Below, piece after piece: positions 1,004 to 15,238 of a DNA stretch of 20,000 bases (position 1 is the first letter of the stretch; the number at the start of each line of letters is the position of its first letter). A program made the translations under genes and the position numbers. Origin of the DNA: Candidatus Aminicenantales bacterium (lineage in GTDB: Bacteria; Acidobacteriota; Aminicenantia; Aminicenantales; Saccharicenantaceae); assembly GCA_049512315.1 (NCBI GenBank), contig JBEKXF010000015.1:57401-77400 (forward strand), written 5' to 3'. The notes beneath the pieces were generated by a model. It was not told the DNA's origin. It saw only the letters and a list, made by a program, of their open reading frames with translations, and did not search any database.

Positions 1004-1004
1004 A

Positions 1005-1784
1005 TTATAAAAATGAGCGGACCACCCTTCTCAAGGCAATTAAAATATAATACTCAATTTGGCTTAACCCACTTTTTATTGAGTGACCGAATTTTTTAGG
1101 AAAGTGCTTTTTTTGAAGGATATAGGACTCGGATCTAAATCCAGATTTTTGCGTGATCCCTTTGCTTGATTCATGGTAACGGAACTTGCAAATAAGAAAA
1201 GGAACACTCTTAATATTAAAGCCGCTGTTCAGTGCCTTGCTGAAAAAGTCAAAATCCATGCAATAATGCAACTGCATATCCAAAGGACCGCATTGATTCC
1301 AAACACGTCTTCTCCAAAAAGCCGTGGGTTGGCAAATATTAATTCCCACCTTAAAGAATTCTTTTATGAACGGATAATAGAATCCCTTTCTGATCACCCT
1401 TCCCTTTTGGTTAATATCATAATGAAACCCATAAATAACATCGGCAAAAGGCATAGCCATAAAATATCTAGCAACTGCAAACAAAGCGCCGGCATTATAA
1501 ACGTCATCTGAATTTAGCCACGCCAATATTTCTCCGGATGACTTCGCGAATCCCTTATTGATAGCTTCGCTTTGTCCCCGGTCCTTTTCAGATACCCAAT
1601 AGGAGATGCTCTTTTCGTATTTTTTTATAACATCTATGGAACTATCCGTAGATTGGCCATCGATAATAATGTATTCCAAATTAGGGTAATCCTGATTGAT
1701 GACGCTTCTAATGGTCTCTTCAAGAAATAACCCCTGGTTATAACTTGGAGTCACGACAGAAATCTTGGGCCATTGAGGGATCAT
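1005..1784 (-). CDS. Glycosyltransferase family 2 (WfgS/PGL-like GT-A)
   Basis: ISVVTPSYNQ, IIIDGQSTD, NSDD (DxD-like) and the DFDF motif; stop is 1 nt from the next start. Confidence 0.92.
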   Translation of the reverse strand: MIPQWPKISVVTPSYNQGLFLEETIRSVINQDYPNLEYIIIDGQSTDSSIDVIKKYEKSISYWVSEKDRGQSEAINKGFAKSSGEILAWLNSDDVYNAGALFAVARYFMAMPFADVIYGFHYDINQKGRVIRKGFYYPFIKEFFKVGINICQPTAFWRRRVWNQCGPLDMQLHYCMDFDFFSKALNSGFNIKSVPFLICKFRYHESSKGITQKSGFRSESYILQKKHFPKKFGHSIKSGLSQIEYYILIALRRVVRSFL

Positions 1785-1791
1785 TAATGCC

Positions 1792-2526
1792 TTAATTTAT
1801 CTTTTTAACAAAGATACATTCGATTTGATACATTCGGCCCCTTTTAACGTCAGTAAAACCGGGAAAAATCCCAAATAGATCATACCCAAGATTTTTAACA
1901 AAGGGCAGCATCTGGCCAAAATCTCTTTGGCCATCGTACATAGGTATTATGGACATCTCGATTTGCATTACGAAGATCTTATCCAAGATATCCGCAGCCC
2001 CTTCTAATACCTTATCTTCATATCCCTGGCTATCGATCTTTAAGAACGCAGGACGACCCTCTTCTTTGATAATTTTTCTGCCAACCTCATCTAACCTGTA
2101 CATCTGGACTTCTTCAGAGCCTATATATATCGAGTTCGGCTCTGCATTTATGTGCTCCTGGAGGATAGGAAGGATTGAACTACTTACGCTATTTTTAGAA
2201 ATGTTAATCGTTGTAATCTTATTAGCCTCGCCGATAGCACAGCGTTCCGCCAAGCTCCATTTTTTTACTCCACGAGTTTTTTCTCTTAATAATCTATAAG
2301 GACCAGATAAAGGTTCAAAAGAAACTATTTTCCCTTTGTAGCCATGTTCAATCAACCCGATCGCATACTGCCCAACGTTGGCCCCTACATCGAATACGAG
2401 GCCGATTCCATATTCATCCAATAAGAGCTTCACCATTTGAAACGGTGAACTTCCCGGAGTGAATTGAACGACATCGTAGCCGAATCTTCGAAGAAGAGAT
2501 TTAATGGTTTTCTTGAATGGATTCAA
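1792..2526 (-). CDS. FkbM-family SAM-dependent methyltransferase
   Basis: VFDVGANVGQY, SFEP and LKIDSQGYE motifs; TTG start preceded by AGGA. Confidence 0.9.
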   Translation of the reverse strand: MNPFKKTIKSLLRRFGYDVVQFTPGSSPFQMVKLLLDEYGIGLVFDVGANVGQYAIGLIEHGYKGKIVSFEPLSGPYRLLREKTRGVKKWSLAERCAIGEANKITTINISKNSVSSSILPILQEHINAEPNSIYIGSEEVQMYRLDEVGRKIIKEEGRPAFLKIDSQGYEDKVLEGAADILDKIFVMQIEMSIIPMYDGQRDFGQMLPFVKNLGYDLFGIFPGFTDVKRGRMYQIECIFVKKIN

Positions 2527-2550
2527 CGTTTTCCTAGAGAAGGTCTCAAT

Positions 2551-3729
2551 TCAATTCATGCTAGAACAAATGGACTGATAGAGCCTTAAGTGTTGCGCGG
2601 CCACGACATCTGGATGAAATGCTCTTTTTGCGTATTCCGCTGCCTTTATTCCGATTTTCTTTCTCAGGCCATCTTCCTTTAAAAGCCATATCGCTTTTTC
2701 TGCTAAGTCTTTTGAATTCCCGACTTCAAACAACACTCCAGTTTCCCCATCCACGATGTTCTCTTTAATTCCACCCGTTCGTGATCCAAGGACGGGCAAG
2801 CCCATGGCCATTCCTTCAACTACGGTACAGCCAAATGGCTCATAAATAGACGGGGTCACGACTAGGTCGGTATTCCGAAGCTCTTGAATGATCTGGTCCC
2901 ACTCCATCCATCCTAGGAAAGCGACATTATTTGCAACGCCCAAATACCTTGATCTATTTACAATCTTAGACATTGATAATTCTGTAGTATTTCCAATAAC
3001 CTTCAATACGACTTCATGGATTTTTTCCCTGATCAAGGGGAGAGCATCCATTAGGATTTCAAGGCCCTTTTCTCTTCTTAATTGGCCGAAGAATGCTATC
3101 GTTAATCGCCCATCCGTTTTCGAATCGTAATCAACTTTGCTATGGTTAAAAAAGTCGCTATGAACGCAATTGGGAATGCGGTGAATCTTTGCTGTTGTTA
3201 GGGGGCTAATGATTTCCCCGATATAGCGGCTATCCACCGTAATATGGGAAGCATTCTTAATAGTATACTTTTCAAAATGCCTAAAAATAGCCATCGTCGA
3301 CAAACTAGGCTGTCCAGTAATTTTCATTAACATCGGCAAATAATTATGAATTCCAGCAATAGATCGGTAATTCGAAGTTATTGCATAATATGGATCTCCA
3401 GTCTCAGCGTGATGACCGTGGACTATGTCGGGCTTTATTTTTTTTAATTCTCTATGGACGAGCATTTTTGGATATTGAAGGAATGTAAAGCTGGTAAGTT
3501 TCGGAGGAATCCCGACAAAATGAATATTGATATTTCCATCGCGGACTAGCTTCGTCCCCCGGATATGCCGTGTCATGGATATCTGGTGAACATCTACTCC
3601 AGGGATCTTCGATAACCCAAGGCTCAGATTTATCGTGCCGGTCGCACGCGTATAATCCTCAACACGGATTCCGAGTTTTTCTTGTATTTGAGGAGTTAAG
3701 ATATATGGGCAAATAACAGCGATTATCAT
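2551..3729 (-). CDS. Glycosyltransferase family 4
   Basis: FGQLRREKG and PSIYEPFGCTVVEGMAMGLPV...GGIKENIVDGETG motifs. Confidence 0.92.
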   Translation of the reverse strand: MIIAVICPYILTPQIQEKLGIRVEDYTRATGTINLSLGLSKIPGVDVHQISMTRHIRGTKLVRDGNINIHFVGIPPKLTSFTFLQYPKMLVHRELKKIKPDIVHGHHAETGDPYYAITSNYRSIAGIHNYLPMLMKITGQPSLSTMAIFRHFEKYTIKNASHITVDSRYIGEIISPLTTAKIHRIPNCVHSDFFNHSKVDYDSKTDGRLTIAFFGQLRREKGLEILMDALPLIREKIHEVVLKVIGNTTELSMSKIVNRSRYLGVANNVAFLGWMEWDQIIQELRNTDLVVTPSIYEPFGCTVVEGMAMGLPVLGSRTGGIKENIVDGETGVLFEVGNSKDLAEKAIWLLKEDGLRKKIGIKAAEYAKRAFHPDVVAAQHLRLYQSICSSMN

Positions 3730-3736
3730 AGCGATG

Positions 3737-5089
3737 CTATACTGACAAAGACATTGTTATTCGTGGTCGCTCGGCAATTAAGTTTATCGCTAAAAACATA
3801 AATATTTGAAGATAGAAGAGTGTGAAGTTTATAGTGCTTGTCAACCCTGAGAAAAGCAAAACAATCAAGGGAACGACATTAAGCAGTAGCCTAGCATTAT
3901 TTCTATATTTTTTTATCATTTTAAATAGAATTTGCATATTCGCAAGAACAAAAAGGATTACTGCGAATATCCCGTTTTCTACTAATATGTTTAGATAAAT
4001 ATTGTGGGCAGCTGTAAAATACCACCCGGAAATCTTATAGAGGTATTCTCCGAAACCACGAGCGCCTACGCCAAAAATAATATTTGATATATCAGATTTT
4101 AAAATTGGAGCCCAAATACCTTCCACACGACTTAGAATTGTAGAATTGCCATAGGGATAAAATATATCAATCACCATATTTTTCCATGGAGTTAATAAGA
4201 TAAGAGCACCGAACGAAACCGCAAGTATGCTTGCAAGAACATACTTTCTTCTAGCAACCTGATAGATTAATAATGCTATAGCAAGGCTAAATACTGATGC
4301 CCTTGCAGAAAAGCGGGTCATCATATATCCGCTGATAACCACCGCTATGCTCCATAGCACGATTCGTATAATACGGTTTTCCTGCATTATCTTAGTAATG
4401 AGAATAGGGAATAGGACAGCAATCCATACAGATAAATCGACGGCTGATAGAATCCCGGGGCTTAGTCGACTTATCCCTATGCCTCCTACATCGATTATTG
4501 CGCTGGGCTGCGTCACATATATCATGATCGAATAAGCTACCAGTGCGGCCAATACAAGCAAGAGTGAATTTTGAATTATATAAATATCTTCCCGTCTAAA
4601 ATAAAGAACTGCGACTGCATAGAATAAAATAATTGCCGCGATTTTTATTAATTCTTTAAATGATGCTATCTTTTCTGAATGAAAAACAACCGTTTCCAAT
4701 AAACATACAAAAATAAAAGCCAGAAAGACCAACAATCCGGGTGTCTTCACGATAGTTTTAATAAAAGAAATCTTCTTTATATTATAGAAAATTAAAAAAA
4801 TGCTTCCTGCCACGAAAGCGAAACTGATCATGCCCTCATATGTCACTGACCATGTTCCCGGATCCAATATGCTTGTTTCCGTCTTCTCGACGAGTATTGT
4901 TCCCGCCGATATCAATAAATAAAATATTATCAATCCCAGTGGTGGGCGCCATAGGAGGATCAAAAGAAAGGTTGCCGAAAACCCAGCCAACATAAGAATG
5001 CCGTAATCGCCGAAGTACGGCAAAATAAACAGAAAAACTACTAATATTAAAACAAACTGGCGAACAAAATTATTGTTATGTACTTGCAC
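3737..5089 (-). CDS. O-antigen polymerase/ligase family membrane protein (Wzy/WaaL-like)
   Basis: Many hydrophobic segments, SARAS, GVGARGF and AAHNIYLNILVENGIF (Wzy_C-like). The ORF-track start at 5248 overlaps wzx by 134 nt; the in-frame GTG at 5089 is the likelier start, but this is uncertain. Confidence 0.8.
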   Translation of the reverse strand: MQVHNNNFVRQFVLILVVFLFILPYFGDYGILMLAGFSATFLLILLWRPPLGLIIFYLLISAGTILVEKTETSILDPGTWSVTYEGMISFAFVAGSIFLIFYNIKKISFIKTIVKTPGLLVFLAFIFVCLLETVVFHSEKIASFKELIKIAAIILFYAVAVLYFRREDIYIIQNSLLLVLAALVAYSIMIYVTQPSAIIDVGGIGISRLSPGILSAVDLSVWIAVLFPILITKIMQENRIIRIVLWSIAVVISGYMMTRFSARASVFSLAIALLIYQVARRKYVLASILAVSFGALILLTPWKNMVIDIFYPYGNSTILSRVEGIWAPILKSDISNIIFGVGARGFGEYLYKISGWYFTAAHNIYLNILVENGIFAVILFVLANMQILFKMIKKYRNNARLLLNVVPLIVLLFSGLTSTINFTLFYLQIFMFLAINLIAERPRITMSLSV

Positions 5090-5114
5090 AGGAATAATTG
5101 TCCGTTGCCTAGAG

Positions 5115-6701
5115 CTATTCAAGGGCCTTCTGAAGCTTTCCGAATAATCTACTTTTTGTATTCGCCGCGATATTCGCAAGTAATGTTTTTTCTTCCTGTG
5201 TCCATTTTTCGAGTAGAAAAGTCGCGATGAAATAGACAACGATGCCAAGTAGGATACTCAAACCGAGTTTAATCAGTAACAGGGCATGCCTTAACACTAA
5301 AGATAAAAACATGATTGTTGCCCCTGTAATGAACATTATTAATAATCTTTTAGCATAGTCCCTTATCGAACCTGGCTTAACCTTTAATAGCCAAACTACT
5401 TCGCCGAGAACAATTGATTGAATAATCACGTATGTAACGGCGACAGATATTGCAGCTCCAATCATCCCCCATAGCGATGTCATATATATGGACAAACCAA
5501 GATTTAGGGTCAACATTAGAATTCCGTTTATAATCAATAATTTTCTTTTGTCGTACATAAGAAGTATAGTTCCTGAAGCTCCAAAGATAGTTTGATATAA
5601 CTGAGCAAATGCGAATATTTTTAGCGCATAACTTCCAATAGCAAAATCTGGTCCGAATATCCTTAGCATATCTTCACTCAGGCAAAATATGATAACAAAC
5701 CCGATTCCGCTTATTAGCCCTATCCATTTTGCAGATATCGAAAATACTTTATCAACACCATCCTTGTTTTTTTGTCGAATGAATTTCGCAATTGATACTG
5801 CAAATAATTCTCCAAACACAATCAATGGGATGAGTATCACAGAGCCAAGGATTCGCACGATTGCATAAACGCCTGCTTCACGTGAAGAAGACATATATCC
5901 GACCACCCACAGGTCGAGCTCTCTTGATGCCGTTGTCAGAAACGGGACAATGGTTAGCGGAGCTGAATAGCGTAATAAATCTCCCATTTCGATGCCGTGC
6001 TCTTCCTCAACAGGCACTGGCAATCTTTCATTTAACTTCTTAAGTTCTTTAGTTAGAATTATGGCTAAGGCACATGAAGAAAGGATAAGTCCTGCGATTG
6101 TCCCAAGGAGCAACGCAATTATATGATTAAAAAAGAAAAGAAAGACGATAGTGATGACTAGACGAGATATGTTCCTTATTATTTGGTCAAATATTGTGAT
6201 TTTATAATTTTTCTGAATTACGGTGAAACTCGACTGGAGGATCGGAATTAGACTTATCAAAGGAAAAACCAATATGAGGTCATCAAAAACATTGATGCTT
6301 CCTACGCTTCTAACTAAAAGGGGATAAGCAATTTTCCTCAAGATAATAAAATAGGAAAATACTATCGAGGTTGATATAACCAGGACCGAAATACAGCTGA
6401 GCTTTATCAAGCGCGAGACATTATTCGCATCGTTGGCGCCAAGATAATATCCTCCTTTTCGAAGGACGGTCAGATTCAATCCAAGCCCGGGAAGAATCTG
6501 GCTTATCATCATAATACTTAGGCCTACTCCTATTGCGCCAATTGCACTCGCCCCCACTGTACGCGCAAGAACAATGCTTGTTAAGAACGAAATGGCGTAG
6601 GCAATAGGGCGCAATAATCCATCATAAATCCCAGATTTAGATATAATCGTTAGTTCAGAGAGGATGTGTTTCTGATTCTCGGAGATCACATGGATTTCCA
6701 T
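5115..6701 (-). CDS. wzx: Polysaccharide flippase (Wzx/MATE-like)
   Basis: About 12-14 hydrophobic segments; LARTVGASAIG, D-x5-Y...EAGVYA and WGMIGAAIS motifs; first gene of the low-GC block. Confidence 0.85.
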   Translation of the reverse strand: MEIHVISENQKHILSELTIISKSGIYDGLLRPIAYAISFLTSIVLARTVGASAIGAIGVGLSIMMISQILPGLGLNLTVLRKGGYYLGANDANNVSRLIKLSCISVLVISTSIVFSYFIILRKIAYPLLVRSVGSINVFDDLILVFPLISLIPILQSSFTVIQKNYKITIFDQIIRNISRLVITIVFLFFFNHIIALLLGTIAGLILSSCALAIILTKELKKLNERLPVPVEEEHGIEMGDLLRYSAPLTIVPFLTTASRELDLWVVGYMSSSREAGVYAIVRILGSVILIPLIVFGELFAVSIAKFIRQKNKDGVDKVFSISAKWIGLISGIGFVIIFCLSEDMLRIFGPDFAIGSYALKIFAFAQLYQTIFGASGTILLMYDKRKLLIINGILMLTLNLGLSIYMTSLWGMIGAAISVAVTYVIIQSIVLGEVVWLLKVKPGSIRDYAKRLLIMFITGATIMFLSLVLRHALLLIKLGLSILLGIVVYFIATFLLEKWTQEEKTLLANIAANTKSRLFGKLQKALE

Positions 6702-6794
6702 ACCGATAATTAGTCTATATGGTCCCCAAGTCCTTCTTGAGTACCTATTTTCGTCAGGGACAAGGATTCTAACCCTACCCTCATTGCCTCACAA

Positions 6795-6823
6795 AGCCTA
6801 CTGAACAATCTAGCCTTGTGCAA
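6795..6823 (-). promoter_or_regulatory. Candidate sigma70 promoter for the wzx block
   Basis: TTGCAC-17 nt-TAGGCT on the minus strand, about 95 nt upstream of the wzx ATG. Confidence 0.35.
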
Positions 6824-7234
6824 TTCAGCGCGCCCGATCATCTTTGTTCTATTGCGGTCAATAGGTGCCTATAGCGCTTGCGGGAAAAACAAAGCCCTCA
6901 ACCCCGGCTACCAACTAACGAACAGGGGCTTAAAAAAGCGGATTTTTGAGCAGGAGTACGTATTCCACGTTAAGAACCTCTATGAATGGCCGGCGTGTCC
7001 ACAAACTCATTGCGATACCCAATCCGAATAAAGTTCGATAGACTGCTATTTTACTAACCGTCGGCAAATAGACACAAGTCTTCGAGACAATCGCTTTCAA
7101 TTTAGGGCCAAAAAGCTTAATCATTTAATTACAATAAAGCGAGATGTCTTTTTCTGGAAAAACCGTTTCTCAGCTTTCTCTGTTTCAAAAAGAACCCGAG
7201 AGCATTTTCATGTAAAAAGAAACGGTTTCAACGA

Positions 7235-7568
7235 TTACCTTCTTATCGCCATCCTGACCTGCTCGGCTACCCAATGTTAAATGAGGTTGATACCTCTTTT
7301 AAAGAGCACCCTGACTTCAAGCCGATTGGATAAATCTTAGCGTTGCTATAATTGCATGAGTGAACGCCTACAGGGTCCATAACCTATTTAACACGGGTAT
7401 TCTTATGGCAACCCTAGACATTGTTTTGTCAAGCTTCCTAACTGAAACATACTCCGGGCACCCGAAATTAATGAGAACATCGATGTCGGAGTATATTAGG
7501 AGATATATTCTCTCCAACATGTCATTTATGTATGTGTAAGAACGAATTGCTATCCCGTCTCCTCATGC
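7235..7568 (-). pseudogene. Degenerate 3' third of a GDP-mannose 3,5-epimerase-like gene (paralogue of 9921-10874)
   Basis: Translates [42 protein letters not shown] versus [43 protein letters not shown] (31/41 identical from GDG). It continues PVGVHSCNYSNAKIY and WVAEQ with frameshifts and stops, ending in TAA at the equivalent position. Confidence 0.93.
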
Positions 7569-7833
7569 CCCTGACGATCCTCTCAAGCACGCGCATGATC
7601 TTTCATCCCTGGCTGGCCTTTTTCTGGGCTTTACCACGTTTGCCTCTAAACAGGTTCGTCCCCGCTTCCGGCAGGATATTCCCTCCAATCGCCGACTACG
7701 CTCCTCAGAAAGCAGCCTTCTCGCACTCAAGGTCGAGGTCGGGCAGGGCAAAGTGAACGGCGCTTGTCCTGAGACAATCCTCGGCCTCTTCGATAATGTC
7801 AATCCGGAAAGGGTTGCACTTAATGAAATAGAT
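7569..7833 (-). pseudogene. Degenerate C-terminal half of a RAYT-like transposase (paralogue of 10930-11610)
   Basis: FIKCNPFRIDIIEEAEDCLRTSAVHFAL versus FIENDPVREGVVEKAEDYPWSSARHHVL (12/28). After a frameshift, GCFLRSVVGDWREYPAGSGDEPV*RQTW*SPEKGQP versus GCFLNGEVKDWRAYLTARGDEPVLVRTWQSLKTGRP (19/36). Confidence 0.88.
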
Positions 7834-7881: not shown

Positions 7882-8853
7882 TTATGACCCATCCCCTGAT
7901 TTTTGCCGCCAGAAGGCTAGCGTATCACGGAGAGTTTGATCAATCGGGATCCGAGGCAACCAGCCTATTCCTTCTGAGATCTTTCGGTTACTGCCGATGA
8001 GGGAATTCACATCGGCCTTCCTGAATTTAGCCGCGTCAACTTCGACTAAGATAGGTGTTTTCCCACGAGTTTCTCTGACCAGAAAGTCTAGAACCTCACG
8101 AAGCGCAGTCGCCTTCCCTGAGCAAACATTATAGGGCTCGCCCCAGCGCCCTTTTCTAAGCAGGAGGATATATGCCTTAACGACATCGCGAACGTCGCAA
8201 AAATCCCGCTGTACATCAAGATTCCCGACCTTAAGGGTGGGGGCGATATCTCCTCGCTCGATTTGGGCAACCTGGCGGGCCCAGTCGGAGCAGACGAAGT
8301 CCTCCGCCTGACCCGGGCCCGTATGGGGGAATGGCCGGGCGATGACGATGTCGATGTTCTCGATCTTTTCATAAAATCCACAGAGCATTTCGCCGGCAAC
8401 TTTGGAATAAGCATACGGGTCAACGATCTGGATCGGCGCATCTTCGTTTATGGCCTCGGCCGGCGCAGGCCCGAAGCCGTAGACATCTGAAGAGCTGATG
8501 AAGAGCACTTTGGCCGCAGGCGCGCTCAGCCTGACGGCTTCAAGAAGATTATGAGTGCCAAGGACGTTTGTTTCGATCGTCTCGCTCCTCTTCTCCCAGG
8601 ACCTGCGTACGTTCGAAATGGCCGCAAGATGGAAGATCCAATCGGGCCGAATCTCGCTTACGAGTTTTATCGCGTCTTTTTCCGAACGCAGGTCCAGGAA
8701 AAAGAACTTATTTCGGGAGGGCGGCGGGACATCCGGATAGGCGGTGCCGAATATCTCGAATGCGGACGGTCCTTCTGCCTCAAGGGCCCGGATAAGATGC
8801 CCTCCGGCAAATCCGGTCGCGCCGGTGATGAGAACCCGGGTCTTTTCGCTCAT
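7882..8853 (-). CDS. rmd: GDP-4-keto-6-deoxy-D-mannose reductase (Rmd-like) extended SDR
   Basis: LITGATGFAG, HLAAIS, SSSDVYG, YAYSK (YxxxK), RPFPHTGPGQ and VGNLDVQRDF; directly after gmd. Start reassigned to ATG 8853, just after the gmd stop. Product stereochemistry (rhamnose vs 6-deoxytalose) cannot be resolved. Confidence 0.72.
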   Translation of the reverse strand: MSEKTRVLITGATGFAGGHLIRALEAEGPSAFEIFGTAYPDVPPPSRNKFFFLDLRSEKDAIKLVSEIRPDWIFHLAAISNVRRSWEKRSETIETNVLGTHNLLEAVRLSAPAAKVLFISSSDVYGFGPAPAEAINEDAPIQIVDPYAYSKVAGEMLCGFYEKIENIDIVIARPFPHTGPGQAEDFVCSDWARQVAQIERGDIAPTLKVGNLDVQRDFCDVRDVVKAYILLLRKGRWGEPYNVCSGKATALREVLDFLVRETRGKTPILVEVDAAKFRKADVNSLIGSNRKISEGIGWLPRIPIDQTLRDTLAFWRQKSGDGS

Positions 8854-8857
8854 CTTA

Positions 8858-9916
8858 TCAGAAACCGGGCCCTTTCGGCAGCCACTGTAATCCTTTTTCG
8901 AGAACGATTTTTTTCCCTTGCCCTGGTGGCTCAACCCCCAGCATCTCGAGATCGGCGTCGACCATGATTTTAACAAGGTCTTTGAATGTGATTTTAGGAA
9001 CCCAGTTTAACTTCTCTCTGGCCTTTCCGGCGTCGGCCCTAAGTTCCGGGACTTCCGTGGGCCGGAAATGTGCTGCCTCGACGACGATATGTTTATGCCG
9101 GTCGAGATTGACATATTTGAAGGCCTCGTCTACGAATTCCTCGACGGAATGAGCCTCTCCCGTTCCGATGACATAGTCGTCAGGCGATTCCTGTTGGAGC
9201 ATTTGCCACATGACCTCGATATACTCCGGGGCGTATCCCCAATCTCTCTTGGCACTCAGGTTGCCCAAATAGATGTTCTTTTCTTTATTGGCCAGGATTT
9301 TGGCTATCCCCCGGGTGATTTTTCTGGTGACAAAGGTCTCCCCTCTTCTCGGAGACTCATGGTTAAAGAGAATTCCGTTGCAGGCAAACAGGTTGTAACC
9401 CTCGCGGTAGTTCCTGACCATCCAATAGGCGTAAACCTTTGCCGCAGCGTAGGGGCTTCGGGGCTGGAAGGGTGTATCTTCATTTTGTGGGGCCGGGGCG
9501 CTGCCGAACATTTCACTACTCGAAGCCTGATAGAACTTGGTCTGGATCCCACTCCTCCGCACGGCTTCCAAAAGGCGGGTGGTTCCCAGGCCGGTGATAT
9601 CGCCGGTGTATTCGGCGAGGTCGAAGCTGACCCGGACATGGCTCTGGGAGGCCAGATGATATATTTCATCAGGCTTAATGTTATAGATAATCTCCGTAAG
9701 CTGCTCGGAGTCGGCGAGATCTCCATAATGGAGAAAAAACCGGGCACCGGGAAGATGGGGATCTACGTAGAGATGGTCGATCCTGCTCCGGTTGAATGAG
9801 CTGGACCTCCGGACGATTCCATGGACCTCGTAGCCTTTTGAGAGCAGGAACTCAGCGAGATAAGAACCGTCCTGGCCTGTGATGCCAGTTATCAGGGCTT
9901 TTTTTCTGTCGGCCAT
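8858..9916 (-). CDS. gmd: GDP-mannose 4,6-dehydratase
   Basis: [56 protein letters not shown] and RDWG; AAGGAG RBS before ATG 9916. Confidence 0.97.
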
Positions 9917-9920
9917 ATTC

Positions 9921-10874
9921 TTACTCCTTTCTCGCTTTGTTGGCTTGTTCCGCAACCCAAGGATAGGTCAGCGCGATGCCGTCTTTCAGGAAATACTTGG
10001 GTTTCCAGCCGAGCGAGTAGATCTTGGCATTGCTGAAGTTGCGGGATTGGACACCGACAGGCCCCTTGATCCATTTTATGAGCACATTTTTACCGGCCAC
10101 CTTGGCAACTGTGTCGATCAATTCTTTGACCGAAACGTATTCGGGACATCCTATATTTGTAGGAACATTGAGGTCCGAGTGCATGAGGAGATAGATACCT
10201 TCCAGCATATCGTCGATATAAGTGTAAGAACGGATCGCCGATCCGTCTCCCCAGGCTTCGATAGTCCCACCGTCTTTCGCTTCAGCGACCTTTCGGGAGA
10301 TCGCGGCTGGCGCCTTTTCGCGCCCGCCTCTCCAGGTGCCTTCCGGGCCGTAGCAATTCTGGAAGCGGGCGATTCTGACCTGCATGCCGTAGCGGCGCCC
10401 ATAGGCAAGGGCCATCCTCTCGGAATAGAGCTTTTCCCAACCGTATTCGTTGTCGGGGAGGGCGGGATAGGCTTCTTCCTCGGTCATCTCCGGTTCGCCG
10501 GGCTTCATATCGCGGTAAATGCAAACGGAAGAGGAAAAGAAATACCGGGGGATTTTTGCCTCAGCGGCCGCATGGGTCATATTGATATTGATGAGGACGC
10601 TGTTGCGCATGATCTCGGTCTCCGCCGAATGGATGAAGCCCATCCCCCCCATATCGGCGGCCAGCTGGTAAACTTCATCAAGAGGACCGGACACAGCTTT
10701 CTCCGCGTTGGGCCTCTCGCGGAGGTCCAGGAGCATGAATTCATCCGCGGCTGTGGCCGAGAATTCCGGGTTTTTTATATCAACGCCTCGAACCCAATAG
10801 CCTTCCTTTTTCAATTTCTTGACGAGATGGCTGCCAATGAAACCGCCGGCCCCGCAAACCAAAGCTCTTTTCAT
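9921..10874 (-). CDS. GDP-mannose 3',5'-epimerase-like SDR
   Basis: [25 protein letters not shown] (catalytic-type Cys), YGWEK and [13 protein letters not shown] (catalytic-type Lys) match the GME family; AAGGAG RBS before ATG 10874. Confidence 0.85.
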
Positions 10875-10929
10875 CGAACGCTCCTTCTTATGTGTTTCCA
10901 TAAGCTATGATTTCTGGTCGTTAGCACGG

Positions 10930-11610
10930 TCATCTAATCAATGCGGACACGGTTTTCCTCGGTCTGCCCCGAGGCAAGGCCGCCAAACGCCGCCCTACGA
11001 TCCCCTCGAGCCCGCGGACGAAGCTCTCCTCCCCGGCCGGCCGGCCCGTCTTCAGGCTCTGCCAGGTGCGAACCAAGACGGGCTCGTCTCCCCTTGCCGT
11101 GAGGTAGGCCCGCCAATCCTTGACCTCGCCGTTCAGGAAACAGCCATCCATGATAACCGGATCTGACTCGCCCAGGACATGGTGCCTGGCGCTCGACCAG
11201 GGATAATCCTCGGCTTTCTCGACGACTCCCTCCCGGACAGGATCGTTCTCGATGAAGCGAACCTCCTCGAAGACGCTCCGGTCGTCCAGCATGCAGGAGA
11301 GGAACCTCCCCTTCCAGAGGTGGCCGGTCACTCCTTTTTTGGCGTGGAAGTACTGGGCATATCTCATGTGGAGGGAATTGAATGTGCGGGCGAGGGCCCC
11401 GTCGGCCTTGGGAACACAGATGAAATGGACATGGTTCCGCATCAGGCAGTAGGCCCAAACCTCGACGTGATAGCGGTTCGCGCATTCCCGGAGCCAGGCG
11501 AGGTAGCGGCGGAAGTCGGCCTCTTCCTCGAACACCGTCTGCTCGTAGTTCCCCCGCTGGGTAACCTGGTGCGGGTAACCGATAATGGTGGAGCGGGCTA
11601 AACGAGCCAT
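10930..11610 (-). CDS. REP-associated tyrosine transposase (RAYT, Y1_Tnp) homologue lacking the catalytic Tyr
   Basis: VTQRGN, AYCLMRNHVH (HUH, H60/H62), GHLWKGRF, YPWSSA and C-terminal PRGRPRK. The YIxxNP motif reads F119-IENDP. Confidence 0.9.
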   Translation of the reverse strand: MARLARSTIIGYPHQVTQRGNYEQTVFEEEADFRRYLAWLRECANRYHVEVWAYCLMRNHVHFICVPKADGALARTFNSLHMRYAQYFHAKKGVTGHLWKGRFLSCMLDDRSVFEEVRFIENDPVREGVVEKAEDYPWSSARHHVLGESDPVIMDGCFLNGEVKDWRAYLTARGDEPVLVRTWQSLKTGRPAGEESFVRGLEGIVGRRLAALPRGRPRKTVSALIR

Positions 11611-11619
11611 ATTAATTCA

Positions 11620-11674
11620 CGAAATCTGGTGACACGCACCGGTTCAAGAGAAACGGAGCATGTCACCGATTTCG
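11620..11674. repeat. Long imperfect palindrome (REP-like) immediately upstream of the RAYT start
   Basis: Left arm CGAAATCtGGTGACAcGCaCCGgTTC pairs with right arm GAAaCGGaGCaTGTCACCGATTTCG around a 4-nt loop. Confidence 0.75.
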
Positions 11675-11694
11675 AGGCGGGCCATTTTTTTTAG

Positions 11695-11703
11695 GCTACC
11701 GCC
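11695..11703 (-). promoter_or_regulatory. ops-like element GGCGGTAGC
   Basis: Minus strand reads GGCGGTAGCCTA versus the ops consensus GGCGGTAGnnTG. It is in the sense orientation in the leader of a polysaccharide operon, at the 3' foot of a hairpin. Confidence 0.4.
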
Positions 11704-11857
11704 GTTGGCGCCGGACGGGGCGCCAAGGCGGCGAGGCAAGGCCGGCAAACATACTTTTTTTCGGGCGCGGCTGCGTTAGAGCCGCCGCCCACCGGCACCG
11801 AAGCTCAAATGGGGCGAGGCCGGGGATTCGTCCTTTCCCGTGGGAAAGGTGCTACGA

Positions 11858-11887
11858 ATTCTATTTAAAATGGGAAGGAAATGTCAA
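11858..11887 (-). promoter_or_regulatory. sigma70-like promoter for the RAYT-gme-gmd-rmd operon
   Basis: TTGACA-18 nt-TAGAAT in an AT-rich patch. Confidence 0.7.
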
Positions 11888-11937
11888 GGAAAAAATAGGG
11901 ACAGCGGGCATTTATCGAAGGGATAACATCGCCCTCC

Positions 11938-11966
11938 TTGACTTGCCGGAGACCCTCTGCTAAAGT
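11938..11966 (+). promoter_or_regulatory. sigma70-like promoter for fkp (divergent)
   Basis: TTGACT-17 nt-TAAAGT with an extended -10 TG, about 40 nt before the GTG start. Confidence 0.65.
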
Positions 11967-12004
11967 CGGGCTCTCCCGGCAGAAGAAAAGAACAAGCGAA
12001 AACC

Positions 12005-15000
12005 GTGTCGGCGCCCAAGAAGAGCCCTCTTTTCCCTGAATGGGATTATCTGATCATCACCGCCTCTAATGATAAGCAGGCCGGGGTCTACCGGAGCCTG
12101 ATCGATCTCAGGCAATCCCTTGGCCTGATCAGCGGCGTCAAGAAGGTTCTCGTCGTGGCCGATCCGGGCGGCCGCCGTGTCGGTTCCGGAGGCAGCACGG
12201 TCCATTGCCTGCTCCAGATCCTCAACCTCGAGCTGAGAAGCCGGCGGGAGCTCAGGACACACCTCGACCCTAAGACCTGGGCGGAGACCCTCAACCGCCT
12301 CCGGGTCCTTATCGTCCACGCCGGAGGCGACTCCAGACGTTTGCCACCTTATGCTCCGTGCGGCAAGATCTTCATCCCGGTCCCGGGCGAATCGGGCGGC
12401 GCGCCCGGCACAACGCTTTTCGACCGCCTGATCCCGACCTATCTCGAATTGCCCAAGCCCGCTTCAGGCGGCGGGCAGGTCGTGGTCACCTCCGGAGATG
12501 TGCTCCTGGACTTCGACGCCGAGGATGTCGTGTTCGCGCAAAATGGGGTTACCGGCGTCGGAGCTCTTGTCAGCCCGGACGTTGCCAAAAACCATGGCGT
12601 TTATTGCCGGCACGAGGACGGCAGCGTTCGCCTGTTCCTTCAGAAACCTCCGGTCGCGAAGCAGGTGGAGATGGGCGCGGTCGATTCGCACGGCCAGGCG
12701 GTTCTCGACATCGGGATCCTGAATCTTGCCCCATCGGCGGCCGTTCGGCTCCTCAAGCTCTGCGGTGTCGGCGGGGGCAAGAAAAGCAGGCGCAAGCTTA
12801 TCTGGGGAGGGCCGCTAACTGAGTCGATCGAGGCAGCGGGCCTGGATATCTACCGTGAGATCTGCTGTGCTTTGGGCAAGGACACATCCTATGCCGGCTA
12901 TATAGACGAAGTCAGAGGGGCCGGATCGGGAGTCGATGGCGCGGCGCTCCGATCCCTCTATCGCGGATTGAGGTCCATCCCGTTTCACGTCCACGTTGTG
13001 CCGCGTTTCCGCTTTCTCCATTTCGGCACGCTTCAGGACCTGATCGAGAGCGGCAGGAGCCTCATGAGCTCCGACATGGGCGACTCGGAAAAGGGAACGA
13101 GCGTTGTCGTCAATTCCCGGGTCAGCGGCCAGGGAATCATCCTTGGGAAGAATGCCTGGGTCGAGGGCTGCCGGGTCAACGCGCCCTTGACGCTCGCCGG
13201 AGATAACGTCGTCGCGGGCGCCGATGTCGCGGCCCCTCTCACCCTCCCGCGAGGGGGATGCCTGGACATCATCGAGGGACGGGGCAGAGACGGGCGCAGG
13301 GGCTGGTTCGTCCGCGCCTACGCGAGCGATGACGCGTTCCATCTGGCCGCCGATAAAGGGGCGCGCCTGTGCGGAATGCCCGTCCGGTCCTGGCTCGGAG
13401 CGATGGGCGCGAGTCCGGCCGACGTCTGGGACGAGAAGCGGACGGCTGCGGAGAGAACGGTCTGGAACGGCCGATTTTTCCCGTTTGCCGCGAAGATGGA
13501 CGAATGCCGAGACTGGCTTTGGCTGCTTGAGCCCGGGAATGCGGCGGCACGCCAAAAAGAGGATTGGCTCGCCGCCGAAAGGTACAGCCTCGAGGAAATG
13601 GCCCTCCGCGCCGACCTGGACTCTTTCCACTCCAGGAGGCTGAAGATCCGCGGCGAGCTGATACGGGAAACGCTGTCCCGAGTTTTTGGCCCGGAGGGCG
13701 TGCTGTCCGCCGCCGAGATCTCCTTCCTGGCCCAAAATCCGGAAAAGGGCGAGCGGGGCCAGTGGGTCATCGCGATCGTCCGGGAAGCGGTCAGGAGCTA
13801 TGAAGCGGCGCAGAGGCATCAGGGGCTGGATTCCCTCGAGCTCTCGCGGATCCTGCATACGCTTGGCTCGCTTCTACTGCAGATCGCGAACGGCGGCGAT
13901 AGGGGTAAGTATAAAAATGGCCGGGACATCATCGGAGCGCTGAGAGCGGGCCTGACGACCGCGGAAAAAAGATGCCTCGGCTCGCTGGGCTTGTCCGTCG
14001 AAGGGGCCGTAAAGCTCAAATCCTGGGCGGGAGAGATGAAAGAGGCGGCGTTCCGGCATCTGAGCCGGACCATTGTCTATCGAAGCGGCGGGATCCCCGC
14101 GTCTCCGAAGAACGTCCTGCGGAGCGATGAGATCGTCTGGGGCAGGTCCCCGGCAAGACTCGACCTCGGCGGGGGCTGGACCGATACTCCCCCCTATTCC
14201 CTCGAGCGGGGCGGGTGTGTCATCAACGCGGCCGTGGACCTCAACGGCCAGGCTCCCATCCAGGCCTATGCCCGGGTCATCGAAAAGCGCGAGATCCGGA
14301 TCAACTCCATCGATCACAGCACGCGGGTGGTCATCAAGACCCTAGAGGAACTCCTGGATTACCGGAAGCCGGGGAGCCAGTTTGCCCTGGCCAAGGCCGC
14401 GCTGGCGCTGGCCGGATTCGCGCCGGAAGCGGCGGCGTGGCCGGCCGGGGTACGGACGCTCGACGGCATGCTCCGCTATTTCGGGGGCGGGATCGAGCTC
14501 ACGACGCTGGCGGCGATCCCGAGCGGAAGCGGGCTCGGGACATCGAGCATCATGGGGGCCGTCCTCGTGTCCATCATCGGCAGGGTCATCGGGCGCCCGC
14601 TGGCGGCGCGCGAGCTTTTCCATGCCGTTTTGAAGCTCGAACAGGAGCTGACGACCGGCGGCGGCTGGCAGGACCAGATCGGCGGGGTGATCGAGGGCGT
14701 GAAGGTGATCACCGCGGATAAGGGCCTTGTGCCGGACCCGCGGATCCACTTTGTCCCAGCGGACCTGCTCGACCCGGCGGCGAACGGCGGCCGGACTCTC
14801 TTGTACTATACGGGGCTGCGGCGGCTGGCCAAGGATATCCTGCACGAGGTCGTCGGGCGGTACCTGGACAGGGACAGGGCCGCGATGGAGACCTTGCGAA
14901 AGCTCCATGCGTTTCCGCCGCTGATGGCGGAGGCCATGGGGACGAGGGACTTGGAGAGGTTCGGCGAGCTCATCGATTTCGCCTGGAAGCTGAACGTGGA

Positions 15001-15238
15001 CCTCGACCCGGACCATACGACCCCGGTTATCGAGGAGCTTCGGGCCCGGATCAGGCCGCATGTCATCGGCGCCAAGCTCTTGGGCGCAGGCGGCGGCGGT
15101 TTCCTGCTCATGGTGTGCAAGTCTCCCGAGGACGCCGCCGCGGTGAAGCGGATGCTGGAGAAAAAGCCGCCCAACGACAAGGCGCGTTTCTTCGATTACT
15201 CCATCAGCCGTGTCGGCCTCATCGTCACGGTTTGTTAA
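12005..15238 (+). CDS. fkp: Bifunctional L-fucokinase / L-fucose-1-phosphate guanylyltransferase
   Basis: N-terminal DPGGRRVGSGGST, HAGGDSRRLP..APCGK, FLQKP and FLHFGT; C-terminal GHMP kinase motifs PARLDLGGGWTDTPPY, IPSGSGLGTSS, TTGGGWQDQ and KLLGAGGGG. Confidence 0.9.
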   Translation: MSAPKKSPLFPEWDYLIITASNDKQAGVYRSLIDLRQSLGLISGVKKVLVVADPGGRRVGSGGSTVHCLLQILNLELRSRRELRTHLDPKTWAETLNRLRVLIVHAGGDSRRLPPYAPCGKIFIPVPGESGGAPGTTLFDRLIPTYLELPKPASGGGQVVVTSGDVLLDFDAEDVVFAQNGVTGVGALVSPDVAKNHGVYCRHEDGSVRLFLQKPPVAKQVEMGAVDSHGQAVLDIGILNLAPSAAVRLLKLCGVGGGKKSRRKLIWGGPLTESIEAAGLDIYREICCALGKDTSYAGYIDEVRGAGSGVDGAALRSLYRGLRSIPFHVHVVPRFRFLHFGTLQDLIESGRSLMSSDMGDSEKGTSVVVNSRVSGQGIILGKNAWVEGCRVNAPLTLAGDNVVAGADVAAPLTLPRGGCLDIIEGRGRDGRRGWFVRAYASDDAFHLAADKGARLCGMPVRSWLGAMGASPADVWDEKRTAAERTVWNGRFFPFAAKMDECRDWLWLLEPGNAAARQKEDWLAAERYSLEEMALRADLDSFHSRRLKIRGELIRETLSRVFGPEGVLSAAEISFLAQNPEKGERGQWVIAIVREAVRSYEAAQRHQGLDSLELSRILHTLGSLLLQIANGGDRGKYKNGRDIIGALRAGLTTAEKRCLGSLGLSVEGAVKLKSWAGEMKEAAFRHLSRTIVYRSGGIPASPKNVLRSDEIVWGRSPARLDLGGGWTDTPPYSLERGGCVINAAVDLNGQAPIQAYARVIEKREIRINSIDHSTRVVIKTLEELLDYRKPGSQFALAKAALALAGFAPEAAAWPAGVRTLDGMLRYFGGGIELTTLAAIPSGSGLGTSSIMGAVLVSIIGRVIGRPLAARELFHAVLKLEQELTTGGGWQDQIGGVIEGVKVITADKGLVPDPRIHFVPADLLDPAANGGRTLLYYTGLRRLAKDILHEVVGRYLDRDRAAMETLRKLHAFPPLMAEAMGTRDLERFGELIDFAWKLNVDLDPDHTTPVIEELRARIRPHVIGAKLLGAGGGGFLLMVCKSPEDAAAVKRMLEKKPPNDKARFFDYSISRVGLIVTVC

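Follow-up and report, generated by a model that had tools for sequence, protein, structure and literature searches.

A conserved clade of Y1 transposase relatives without the catalytic tyrosine, found behind ops-like leaders at the head of polysaccharide loci in Aminicenantales

Proteins of the RAYT type are called domesticated transposases, although to our knowledge no host function has been established for them; for the large subclass 2.1 of the TnpA-Y1 proteins we know of neither a substrate nor a role. What such a protein may do for its host is the question raised by a locus of a Candidatus Aminicenantales bacterium (contig JBEKXF010000015.1, positions 57,401 to 77,400; this whole stretch of 20,000 nucleotides is termed the window), where a gene on the minus strand (10930–11610) codes for a transposase relative with phenylalanine in place of the nucleophilic tyrosine and precedes a cluster of sugar-nucleotide genes. 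The initial annotation had regarded the protein as a candidate domesticated transposase, retained as a regulator, e.g., by antitermination, or as a partner of the glycan operon.

By sequence and fold the protein is a full-length member of the HUH/Y1 transposase family. The reading frame yields 226 amino acids with zero internal stops, and the Pfam profile Y1_Tnp (PF01797) was matched with an E value of 4.5e-10 (40.1 bits, cut-off 23), residues 19–122 being aligned to profile positions 12–120 of 121. The motifs read earlier from the sequence were all recovered, i.e., HQVTQRG at residues 14–20, an intact HUH motif (H60-V-H62) and FIENDP with Phe119; further marks are D123, WSS at 138–140 and a basic C-terminal tail, RGRPRK, which we take to resemble an AT-hook. 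With an AlphaFold2 model (pLDDT 93), the best Foldseek match was 4er8_A, the E. coli TnpA-REP (E 8.8e-9, TM(target) 0.70), followed by the transposases of IS608 and ISDra2; 4er8, 2vjv and 2xo6 all had a probability of 1.00, and 4ER8 was the best sequence-profile match as well (E 1.6e-7). According to a profile of 148 family members, the counterpart of the tyrosine column in 4ER8 is the first Y of DYIYINP, an alignment which fits the class-2 signature Y---NP (Table 1 of Quentin et al. 2018, PMC6006769). The C-terminal helix lacks the hallmark of the superfamily, a nucleophilic tyrosine (Y---NP or Y---Q), its position being occupied by Phe119. TnpA-REP is a single-copy domesticated HUH/Y1 protein which binds a DNA hairpin; the protein of the window differs from it in the missing tyrosine, in about 100 extra C-terminal residues and in its score with the RAYT/TnpA-REP equivalog model REP_Tyr_transpos of NCBIfam (NF047646), which at 60.3 bits is below the cut-off of 80.

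Several properties are shared with subclass 2.1 as described by Quentin et al. (PMC6006769): the sequence NHVH, a motif of the type [Y]IExNP (here FIENDP), the "SS" tail, a length of about 230 residues (226 here versus about 238), low copy number and the absence of canonical GTAG REPs. This subclass equals group 1 of the RAYTs of Bertels and probably also the group termed TIRYTs by Di Nocera et al. 2013 (PMC3733652). The differences are the change of Tyr to F or H, W-K/R instead of W-Q/E, and H15Q, A116E and H112S, which are fixed in the clade treated below; moreover, a flanking TIR pair is missing, and the gene has a fixed place as the first of glycan operons. Sequences without the HuH or Y motifs were left out by Quentin et al. 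as probably non-functional. The word "polysaccharide" is absent from the main texts of Quentin 2018 (PMC6006769) and Bertels 2017, and in a literature search of limited coverage neither a Tyr-less clade nor an association with polysaccharide genes was found described.

The loss of the tyrosine is shared by many relatives. Among 119 close homologues (the Aminicenantes clade), position 119 was F in 94, Y in 18 and H in 7; in distant relatives the same column held Y in 122 of 130 representatives. H60 was retained in all 119 close homologues and H62 in 117, and N or D at position 123, part of the metal site, was kept too. As regards the suggested monophyly of the Phe-bearing homologues, the Tyr-less sequences in a tree of 243 sequences belonged to a clade of 136 members with support 99 and to a second Aminicenantes clade of 4; at least 16 changes between Y and non-Y are required by the whole tree. 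Since the Y- and H-bearing members carry the same derived residues (Q15, K/R100, S112, E116), the hydroxyl group appears to be dispensable on one common background, and since only F, Y and H occur in the column, aromatic or planar residues alone seem to be tolerated. The Tyr-less clade, which has additional fixed changes close to the active site, is under purifying selection: dN/dS values (NG86) of 11 pairs were 0.088–0.260 over the whole protein, far from 1, and 73 columns were invariant across 22 sequences of 65–87% identity. The comparisons of sequences support a domesticated Tyr-less clade and not a one-off substitution. Within the order, where the state of column 119 was read out by tblastn for 29 loci, Tyr-less copies are patchy (at least 17 of 151 genomes), while a family match of any kind was obtained in 113 of the 151 genomes; the genome of the window itself possesses a Tyr-bearing paralogue of 42% identity (C18).

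The genes following on the minus strand code for an NAD-dependent sugar-nucleotide epimerase (9921–10901; the gme of the initial annotation), a GDP-mannose 4,6-dehydratase (8858–9955; TIGR01472, 507.8 bits versus a cut-off of 415), a third NDP-sugar epimerase/reductase (7882–8976) and a Wzx-type flippase (5115–6701), with which the low-GC part of the cluster begins; the base composition is mosaic, with about 40%, 53% and 63% GC. The gap to the epimerase, given before as 55 nt, is 28 nt from the first ATG (10901) or 52 nt from the second (10877). Upstream, a divergent gene resembling bifunctional fucokinase/fucose-1-phosphate guanylyltransferase is located on the plus strand (12005–15238), as is also the case in L007, L008, L011 and L055. 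Two remnants are present within the cluster. A second, diverged Tyr-less copy (7607–7833, minus strand) is 5'-truncated and frame-broken, residues 117–150 corresponding to 7833–7732 and residues 151–192 to 7732–7607 (joint E 1.3e-11), where the reading frame changes and is interrupted by stops; it has Phe in the aligned tyrosine column (TTC at 7827–7825, in IYFIKCNP), as had been noticed earlier. A degraded second epimerase copy (7247–7625, minus strand; residues 195–323, E 1e-25) is fused to this transposase-like remnant, a point absent from the initial annotation. Four loci have such 5'-truncated older copies 2–3 kb downstream of intact ones, namely the window, L013, L016, which equals G082, and G134.

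The position at the head of the cluster recurs in other loci. In 18 of 19 Tyr-less loci the gene was the first of a same-strand polysaccharide cluster, versus none of 12 Pfam-annotated Tyr-bearing loci of other phyla, and the arrangement is retained by both Tyr-less clades of the Aminicenantes. The partner genes vary and include gme/gmd, DegT, UDP-GlcNAc 2-epimerase, UDP-glucose dehydrogenase and flippases. Thus, the predicted synteny with glycan genes was borne out, whereas the specific link to GDP-sugar genes was not; the association is with polysaccharide loci generally. Three of the findings that, by the initial annotation, would have refuted it were looked for, and none of them was obtained. 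A Tyr-bearing relative of 49% identity (G114) heads a Wzm/Wzt-type glycan cluster with an ops-like motif upstream, and looks like an intermediate. A second polysaccharide locus of the same genome as the window (C29) has an ops-like motif without a Tyr-less gene; this type of operon can therefore do without the gene.

The leader is preceded by a predicted sigma-70-like promoter, TTGACA-18 nt-TAGAAT (11858–11887, minus strand), which was already in the initial annotation and which in our consensus scan had 11 of 12 matches; two promoter-like sites were found in 10800–12100, compared with 0.3 ± 0.6 in shuffled sequences. The lack of an evident terminator was likewise confirmed, as a search for minus-strand terminator-like sites in 10800–12100 found none. 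The predicted promoter is followed, after about 150 nt, by an ops-like element, GGCGGTAGCCTA (11692–11703, minus strand), with 10 of 12 bases equal to the E. coli ops12, GGCGGTAGCGTG, including bases 1–9. The portion GCGGTAGC was invariant in 16 of 16 aligned leaders. In the order-level sample, an ops-like motif was present at most 260 nt upstream of 14 of 15 full-length Tyr-less copies, versus 1 of 13 Tyr-bearing copies, namely G114; this conserved leader element before almost every Tyr-less copy is new here. The distance from motif to gene is 8–20 nt in L007, L008, L013, L014, L017 and L055, and no Shine-Dalgarno-like sequence precedes the ATG of the gene in the window, a lack usual in RfaH-type leaders according to Zuber et al. 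2018 (PMC5995543). The 12-mer can fold into a mini-hairpin of the ops type (GGC/GCC). A GC-rich bipartite hairpin (11698–11732, minus strand), whose 3' arm overlaps the first ops-like bases, was predicted by single-sequence folds, and most orthologous leaders have a hairpin of differing sequence at the equivalent place; RNAalifold on 16 leaders recovered the 3-bp mini-hairpin and missed the longer one, which depends on single-sequence folds because variable stems are put out of register in the MAFFT alignment. None of the leader elements corresponds to a curated RNA family, Rfam leader-motif models included: no Rfam family reached its gathering score in the whole window, and in 11560–12050 only chance-level matches (E of at least 2) were seen.

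A third hairpin, with the core GGTGACATG...CGTGTCACC and the loop TCTCTTGA, follows the ops-like element ahead of the start codon (11620–11674, minus strand) and is a copy of a dispersed REP/TIR-type repeat. It was considered as a private cognate repeat of the protein and rejected, being a genome-wide repeat whose presence is unrelated to the gene. A covariance model built from 5 copies, with 33 candidates scored per genome (the counts are lower bounds), found 8 copies in the same genome and matches in at least 80 of 150 genomes of the order; many copies occur without a Tyr-less gene (e.g., in G003, G018 and G019), and G104 and G148, which have the gene, gave no match. GTAG was absent from the foot of all eight copies, the dispersed hairpin lies upstream of the gene only, and flanking GTAG-tagged REPs in a REPtron arrangement were not found around 10930–11610. 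A regex search of 300 nt on each side gave the downstream repeat GGGGACA[CG] in 0 of 16 Tyr-less copies; inverted repeats GGGG[AT][CG]A[CG] on both sides were present in 2 of 13 Tyr-bearing copies (L110, L119).

In E. coli an ops-type leader signal is used to keep surface-sugar operons transcribed. Our genome encodes a NusG paralogue of 157 amino acids as a stand-alone gene (C1:240453–240923, L092), whose best NCBIfam match is RfaH (TIGR01955; positions 1–157 of 159) with 78.1 bits, the cut-off being 144.5. Across the order this gene is single-copy, and 140 of the 151 genomes have it. The RfaH-like paralogue is thus a core gene of the order and the Tyr-less gene a patchy, locus-borne accessory. 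With an ops-like leader and a core factor of this kind, antitermination is more economically seen as the task of that factor; judging from the sequences, it more likely belongs to the RfaH-like protein than to the transposase relative, for which the initial annotation had proposed it. The likeness to ops/JUMPStart and RfaH, as presented by Zuber et al. 2018 (PMC5995543), comprises bases 1–9, the mini-hairpin, the position in 5' leaders of polysaccharide operons, the RfaH-like paralogue and a first gene without Shine-Dalgarno sequence. Different are the phylum (Aminicenantes/Acidobacteriota), the score of the paralogue and the first reading frame behind the element, a transposase relative, an arrangement which we did not find described in the literature consulted.

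Tentatively, and with slightly less than even confidence, we favour an exapted TnpA-Y1 member which is a non-cleaving, structure-specific nucleic-acid binder and a locus-borne modulator of glycan operons; loss of cleavage, nucleic-acid binding and a regulatory role are all three inferred by us. A subclass 2.1 or TIRYT-like relative of the RAYTs would have given up transposition, its clade having dropped the requirement for the nucleophilic tyrosine and retained the fold, the HUH metal site and the basic tail. It would have been kept as first reading frame of polysaccharide operons, immediately downstream of an ops-like element probably read by the RfaH-like paralogue of the order. Y1 transposases with a Y-to-F change still bind DNA, and by analogy single-stranded DNA or RNA hairpins could be the target. 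An entry of this type is PDB 2xo6, by its title an ISDra2 Y132F complex. The protein may act on the GC hairpin, the ops-like element and the TIR-type hairpin of its own leader, or else on the leaders of sister loci, and would modulate expression without being the antiterminator itself. UpxY/UpxZ of Bacteroides capsule loci, locus-borne regulators encoded by the first genes of each operon and acting with a NusG paralogue (PMC11685472), would be similar in working only, sequence and fold being unrelated; here the NusG paralogue is stand-alone and single-copy across the order, with no sign of cross-locus inhibition. In TldR, nuclease-dead TnpB-derived transcription factors, an IS200/IS605-type component was also exapted beside surface-structure genes (bioRxiv 10.1101/2023.11.30.569447), but TldR is RNA-guided and from TnpB, whereas here TnpA (HUH/Y1) would be exapted and a guide RNA is not evident.

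Some observations count against this reading. A mere binder would not need the strict retention of HUH and N/D123, and 18 of 119 close homologues keep Tyr. The gene is patchy versus the near-universal RfaH-like gene, the C29 locus has the ops-like motif but not the gene, and the dispersed hairpin is independent of the gene.

The conserved metal site (119/119 and 117/119 for the histidines, and N/D123) would suit a protein which is still an enzyme, cutting or rearranging DNA at the head of the locus by another route, and which could serve for exchange or stacking of glycan gene modules. We consider this unlikely, though it is the best of the alternatives. The nucleophile could be Tyr22 or Tyr12, both conserved near strand beta-1 in the conservation comparison, or water activated by Glu116, one helix turn before F119; E116, Y12 and Y22 figure as clade-specific gains. 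A tyrosine could also be supplied in trans by the Tyr-bearing paralogue, present in this (C18) and most genomes of the order, on the model of IS608 TnpA dimers, which have trans active sites. The truncated older copies in four loci (window, L013, L016, G134) and the mosaic GC content would agree with such rearrangements. However, cleavage is abolished by Y-to-F in the Y1 enzymes studied, and TnpA-REP, the relative with a solved structure, is active as a monomer. Tyr22 occurs also in Tyr119-bearing sister groups (e.g., L020–L029, "RGNY") and is therefore no compensating gain, and the Tyr-less genes are without flanking inverted repeats (GGGGACA[CG] downstream in none of 16).

Somewhat less probable again is that the Tyr-less HUH protein, as a locus-encoded co- or anti-factor of the RfaH-like paralogue, reads the single-stranded hairpin of the ops-like element or the adjacent GC or TIR hairpins; recognition would take place on the nascent leader RNA or, while transcription is paused, on the non-template strand of the bubble.

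The short distance of 8–20 nt from the ops-like motif to the gene in several loci, the ATG without Shine-Dalgarno-like sequence, as usual in RfaH-type leaders, and the patchy distribution would also be expected of a frozen hitch-hiker, the protein itself being useless: an ancestral TIRYT element would have entered the leader of a glycan operon at its ops region, while this was single-stranded or paused, and lost its tyrosine and its ends; it would persist only by holding the operon's first translation start and by spreading with the cassette. Tyr-bearing paralogues flanked by GGGGACA[CG] inverted repeats do occur in the order (L110, L119). The low dN/dS across the whole protein, the 73 invariant columns, the restriction of column 119 to F, Y or H and the arrangement kept by two separate clades make this improbable. 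A non-regulatory partner in glycan synthesis or export, e.g., a scaffold or a (sugar-)nucleotide-binding factor re-using the metal site, would explain the retention of that site and the conserved neighbourhood of chemically varied glycan genes, but is most improbable of all, as signatures of a membrane protein or of an enzyme partner were not found, both the fold and the RGRPRK tail suggest nucleic acids, and the downstream genes differ between loci, so that there is no constant partner.

A selected clade without nucleophile, in a fixed place behind an ops-like signal of glycan operons, offers a concrete, testable function, and the Tyr-bearing to Tyr-less forms constitute a natural series. Should the protein be only a passenger, the case would still show how genes of mobile elements become fixed at operon heads. 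If it were a co- or anti-factor of the RfaH-like protein, we would know of no earlier transposase derivative (TnpA) that regulates transcription elongation, and the toggling between Tyr and Phe or His would mark a lineage between mobile enzyme and host regulator. With the ops-like element and the core RfaH-like factor, this kind of operon control would extend to the mostly uncultured Aminicenantes.

The gene at 10930-11610 (minus strand) encodes 226 residues in an uninterrupted reading frame. The product matched the Pfam family Y1_Tnp with an E value of 4.5e-10 (40.1 bits; cut-off 23), residues 19-122 aligning with profile positions 12-120 of 121, and scored 60.3 bits with the NCBI model for REP-associated tyrosine transposases, which is under the cut-off of 80. 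The HUH motif (H60-V-H62) and the N-terminal motif (H14-Q-V-T-Q-R-G) are present, and the helix motif reads R-F119-I-E-N-D-P, with phenylalanine in the column of the catalytic tyrosine; the initial annotation, which described a full-length ORF with these three motifs, was confirmed in this respect. Motifs, length and the 'WSS' tail fit TnpA-Y1 subclass 2.1 in the classification by Quentin et al. 2018 (PMC6006769). For a profile of 148 family members the best solved relative was E. coli TnpA-REP (4ER8; E 1.6e-7), the family Tyr column corresponding to the first Tyr of DYIYINP. An AlphaFold2 model of the product (mean pLDDT 93, pTM 0.87) gave 4er8_A as the top Foldseek match (E 8.8e-9, TM 0.70 for the target), followed by the IS608 and ISDra2 transposases. 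The protein is thus a member of this family and has its fold. The motif P-R-G-R-P-R-K is near-invariant at the C-terminus (residues 207-226, window positions 10930-10990), and T-G-R-P is found at residues 188-191; both are common to Tyr-bearing relatives and presumably resemble AT-hook motifs.

A word-indexed search yielded 2997 relatives at E ≤1e-3, the best 120 of which were 66-100% identical to the query; an exhaustive search of 50%-identity representatives yielded 25,047 proteins at E ≤0.001, including 340 at E ≤1e-30. Proteins of 190-300 residues were kept for alignment, i.e., 119 of the 120 close proteins (close set) and 130 of 150 representatives (distant set). Column 119 contained F in 94, Y in 18 and H in 7 proteins of the close set, versus Y in 122, F in 2 and four other residues once each in the distant set. 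The sets differed also at positions 15 (Q in 96/119 versus H in 120/130), 100 (K or R in 114/119 versus Q in 102/130), 112 (S in 115/119 versus H or Y) and 116 (E in 118/119 versus A). H60 was retained in 119/119 and H62 in 117/119 close members, and those bearing Tyr (18) or His (7) had derived residues identical to those of the Phe-bearing members. In a FastTree tree of 243 sequences, restricted to rows of 205-262 residues, the close set formed a single clade of 136 (support 99) with Y and H interspersed between the F rows. Another small clade from Aminicenantes (loci L030, L032, L034, L035) had F or L in the Tyr column, the other approximately 100 sequences had Y except for singletons, and at least 16 changes between Y and non-Y were counted on the whole tree. 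Since F, Y and H occur on a shared derived background and are scattered on the tree, the Tyr hydroxyl is dispensable in the close clade, the column remaining aromatic or planar. The alignments define a Tyr-less clade with co-varying changes at other positions, and the substitution is old and shared, as had been supposed initially.

Codon alignments of the gene with orthologues from public MAGs (NG86 method) gave dN/dS values of 0.088-0.260 in the 11 pairs whose amino-acid identity was ≥68%; these ratios are rough, because dS was 0.6-1.7 and near saturation. In a set of 22 clade members that are 65-87% identical, 73 columns are invariant. The codon data, with ratios not near 1, indicate purifying selection on the gene, in line with earlier expectation.

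The genome holding the window comprises 3.55 Mb. The leader contains, on the minus strand, a promoter-like TTGACA-18-TAGAAT site (11887-11858; consensus scan), a GC-rich hairpin (11732-11698) whose 3' arm runs into the ops-like 12-mer GGCGGTAGCCTA (11703-11692), and a long imperfect hairpin (11674-11620) between this 12-mer and the ATG at 11610, before which no Shine-Dalgarno-like sequence was found. Genes for a sugar-nucleotide epimerase, a GDP-mannose 4,6-dehydratase and a third epimerase/reductase follow on the same strand; a fucokinase/guanylyltransferase-like gene is located divergently upstream. The promoter of the initial annotation was recovered, its two boxes 18 nt apart, and no terminator-like site was found on the minus strand in 10800-12100, also as described; the gap to the epimerase, however, is not exactly 55 nt but measures 28 nt if the first ATG of that gene is taken as its start and 52 nt if the second is. 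GC content steps down from 62-66% (11000-15000) to about 53% (8000-11000) and about 40% (1-7500), which suggests that the polysaccharide cluster is a mosaic of modules of differing origin. Fused remnants (7247-7833) lie where the low-GC part, which is led by a flippase gene, meets the rest of the cluster: a second, diverged Tyr-less copy (residues 117-192 at 7833-7607; 38-48% identity, frame change, stops), which has the previously reported Phe at the aligned column, and, fused directly to it, a degraded second epimerase copy (residues 195-323 at 7625-7247). Truncated copies lacking the 5' part were found 2-3 kb downstream of intact ones at loci L013 (8806-9054) and L016 (genome G082; 7906-8316) and in genome G134 (G134:C57:141792-142220). 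Such arrangements suggest that modules headed by the Tyr-less gene were stacked or exchanged. Another Y1-family gene of the window's genome (G000:C6:22233-22687) has a classic YIHLNP motif but is interrupted by a frameshift, so that it is a pseudogene unless the assembly is wrong at this place.

The Tyr-less gene has a fixed place, heading glycan operons behind an ops-like element, and its Tyr-bearing relatives are located elsewhere. Scanning species-representative genomes yielded 79 loci, of which 19 either have a residue other than Tyr at column 119 or are partial members of the clade (L007-L019, L030, L032, L034, L035, L048, L055). Same-strand sugar-nucleotide, glycosyltransferase or flippase genes were present downstream in 18 of these 19 (exception, L018), the nearest recognisable glycan gene being 3-5 kb downstream in L008, L012 and L055. 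Among 12 Tyr-bearing loci of other phyla, picked from about 60 for long flanks, none had polysaccharide genes nearby by Pfam annotation, and tblastn of the window's glycan proteins against Tyr-bearing loci gave 0 matches. The proposed synteny with a GDP-sugar operon therefore stood with respect to glycan genes, but the content is varied beyond gme/gmd: besides gme/gmd/epimerase, it includes DegT aminotransferase, UDP-GlcNAc 2-epimerase, UDP-glucose dehydrogenase, RmlA/B, GT1/GT2 and Wzx. Within the order, 113 of 151 genomes had a family match and at least 17 a Tyr-less copy. In an order-level sample (29 loci listed), which is not independent of the first since some loci are from the same genomes, a GGCGGTAG-type motif was present ≤260 nt upstream of 14 of 15 full-length Tyr-less copies (exception, L103; a partial 16th copy, L112, was left out), versus only 1 of 13 Tyr-bearing copies. 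The latter, L122 (G114:C1:191500-204500; gene at 4414-5073), has 49% identity, the ancestral 'PHH' and the ops-like motif 210 nt upstream; it is the head gene of a glycan cluster that includes ABC transporter genes of the Wzm/Wzt type, and a Wza-like exporter gene is divergent upstream. This copy may be an intermediate between mobile and exapted forms, and because it bears Tyr in such a position, capture at the operon head may have preceded the loss of Tyr.

That the hairpin at 11620-11674 is private to the Tyr-less gene was considered and rejected. It belongs to a dispersed repeat of about 55 nt with conserved loop TCTCTTGA and covarying stems, which no Rfam family matches. A covariance model from five copies (compensatory changes in 8/24 pairs) detected eight strong copies in the window's genome, mostly directly 3' of genes (besides the window's own copy, at C8:3670, C15:43794, C51:634, C51:1839, C4:17608, C19:39721 and C2:155413). 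Of 150 genomes from the order, at least 80 gave matches, which bore no relation to whether a Tyr-less copy was present. Between ops-like motif and start codon it was found at E <1e-4 in 5 of 19 orthologous loci (L010, L011, L016, L019, L030), with weaker matches in the leaders of L012 and L018, and by regular expression in 7/16 Tyr-less versus 0/13 Tyr-bearing order-level loci; this recurrence in Tyr-less leaders is far above expectation from genomic density. The core of the arms, GGGGACA[CT], resembles the TIRYT inverted-repeat consensus quoted in a section of Quentin et al. 2018 (PMC6006769). Tyr-bearing paralogues carry GGGGACA[CG], inverted on both sides and TIRtron-like in L110 and L119, and on a single side in L115, L120 and L121. 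Since the arm core resembles the TIRYT repeat flanking L110 and L119, the dispersed hairpins may be gene-less derivatives of the ends of an ancestral element.

The sequence GCGGTAGC was invariant in 16/16 aligned leaders, the consensus fold of which is a small GGC/GCC hairpin. The window's 12-mer equals the E. coli ops12 oligonucleotide GGCGGTAGCGTG at bases 1-9, and the small GGC/GCC hairpin recalls the ops non-template-strand hairpin, both as given in passages of Zuber et al. 2018 (PMC5995543). In the window's genome, GGCGGTAGC occurs 15 times versus about 65 expected from base composition; one further occurrence is at a second polysaccharide locus (G000:C29:12099), 20 nt ahead of its flippase gene, and a transposase-like gene is absent there. 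Two NusG-family genes were found in this genome; the stand-alone paralogue (G000:C1:240453-240923; 157 residues) has RfaH as its best NCBIfam match, full length, with 78.1 bits under a cut-off of 144.5. An RfaH-like gene, nearly always single, is present in 140/151 genomes of the order and in 101/106 of good quality. The simplest reading, from sequence comparisons, is that element and paralogue would constitute an antitermination system of the ops/RfaH kind. At a subset of loci, the transposase relative would be the first ORF to be translated after this signal.

We infer that the protein would no longer cleave, and that it would be a putative binder of structured nucleic acid which modulates its own operon; the modulator reading is tentatively favoured, at somewhat less than an even chance. 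Against a simple "dead binder" are the strictly retained metal site, a new Glu one helix turn ahead of Phe119, conserved Tyr22 and Tyr12 nearby, and Tyr in 15% of the clade. Residual or altered catalysis, a reading with the same residues on its side, appears unlikely. Against an essential regulator are the patchy occurrence of Tyr-less copies, for which at least 17 of the 151 genomes were counted, and the existence of glycan loci with an ops-like leader without the gene. That the gene is a passenger is improbable, given purifying selection, and a non-regulatory partner is more improbable still. The points against a dead binder and an essential regulator determined these estimates, including that for the modulator reading. 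RfaH-type operon control has been described mainly for Proteobacteria. The ops-like leaders and RfaH-like genes point to a putative control of this type in Aminicenantes.
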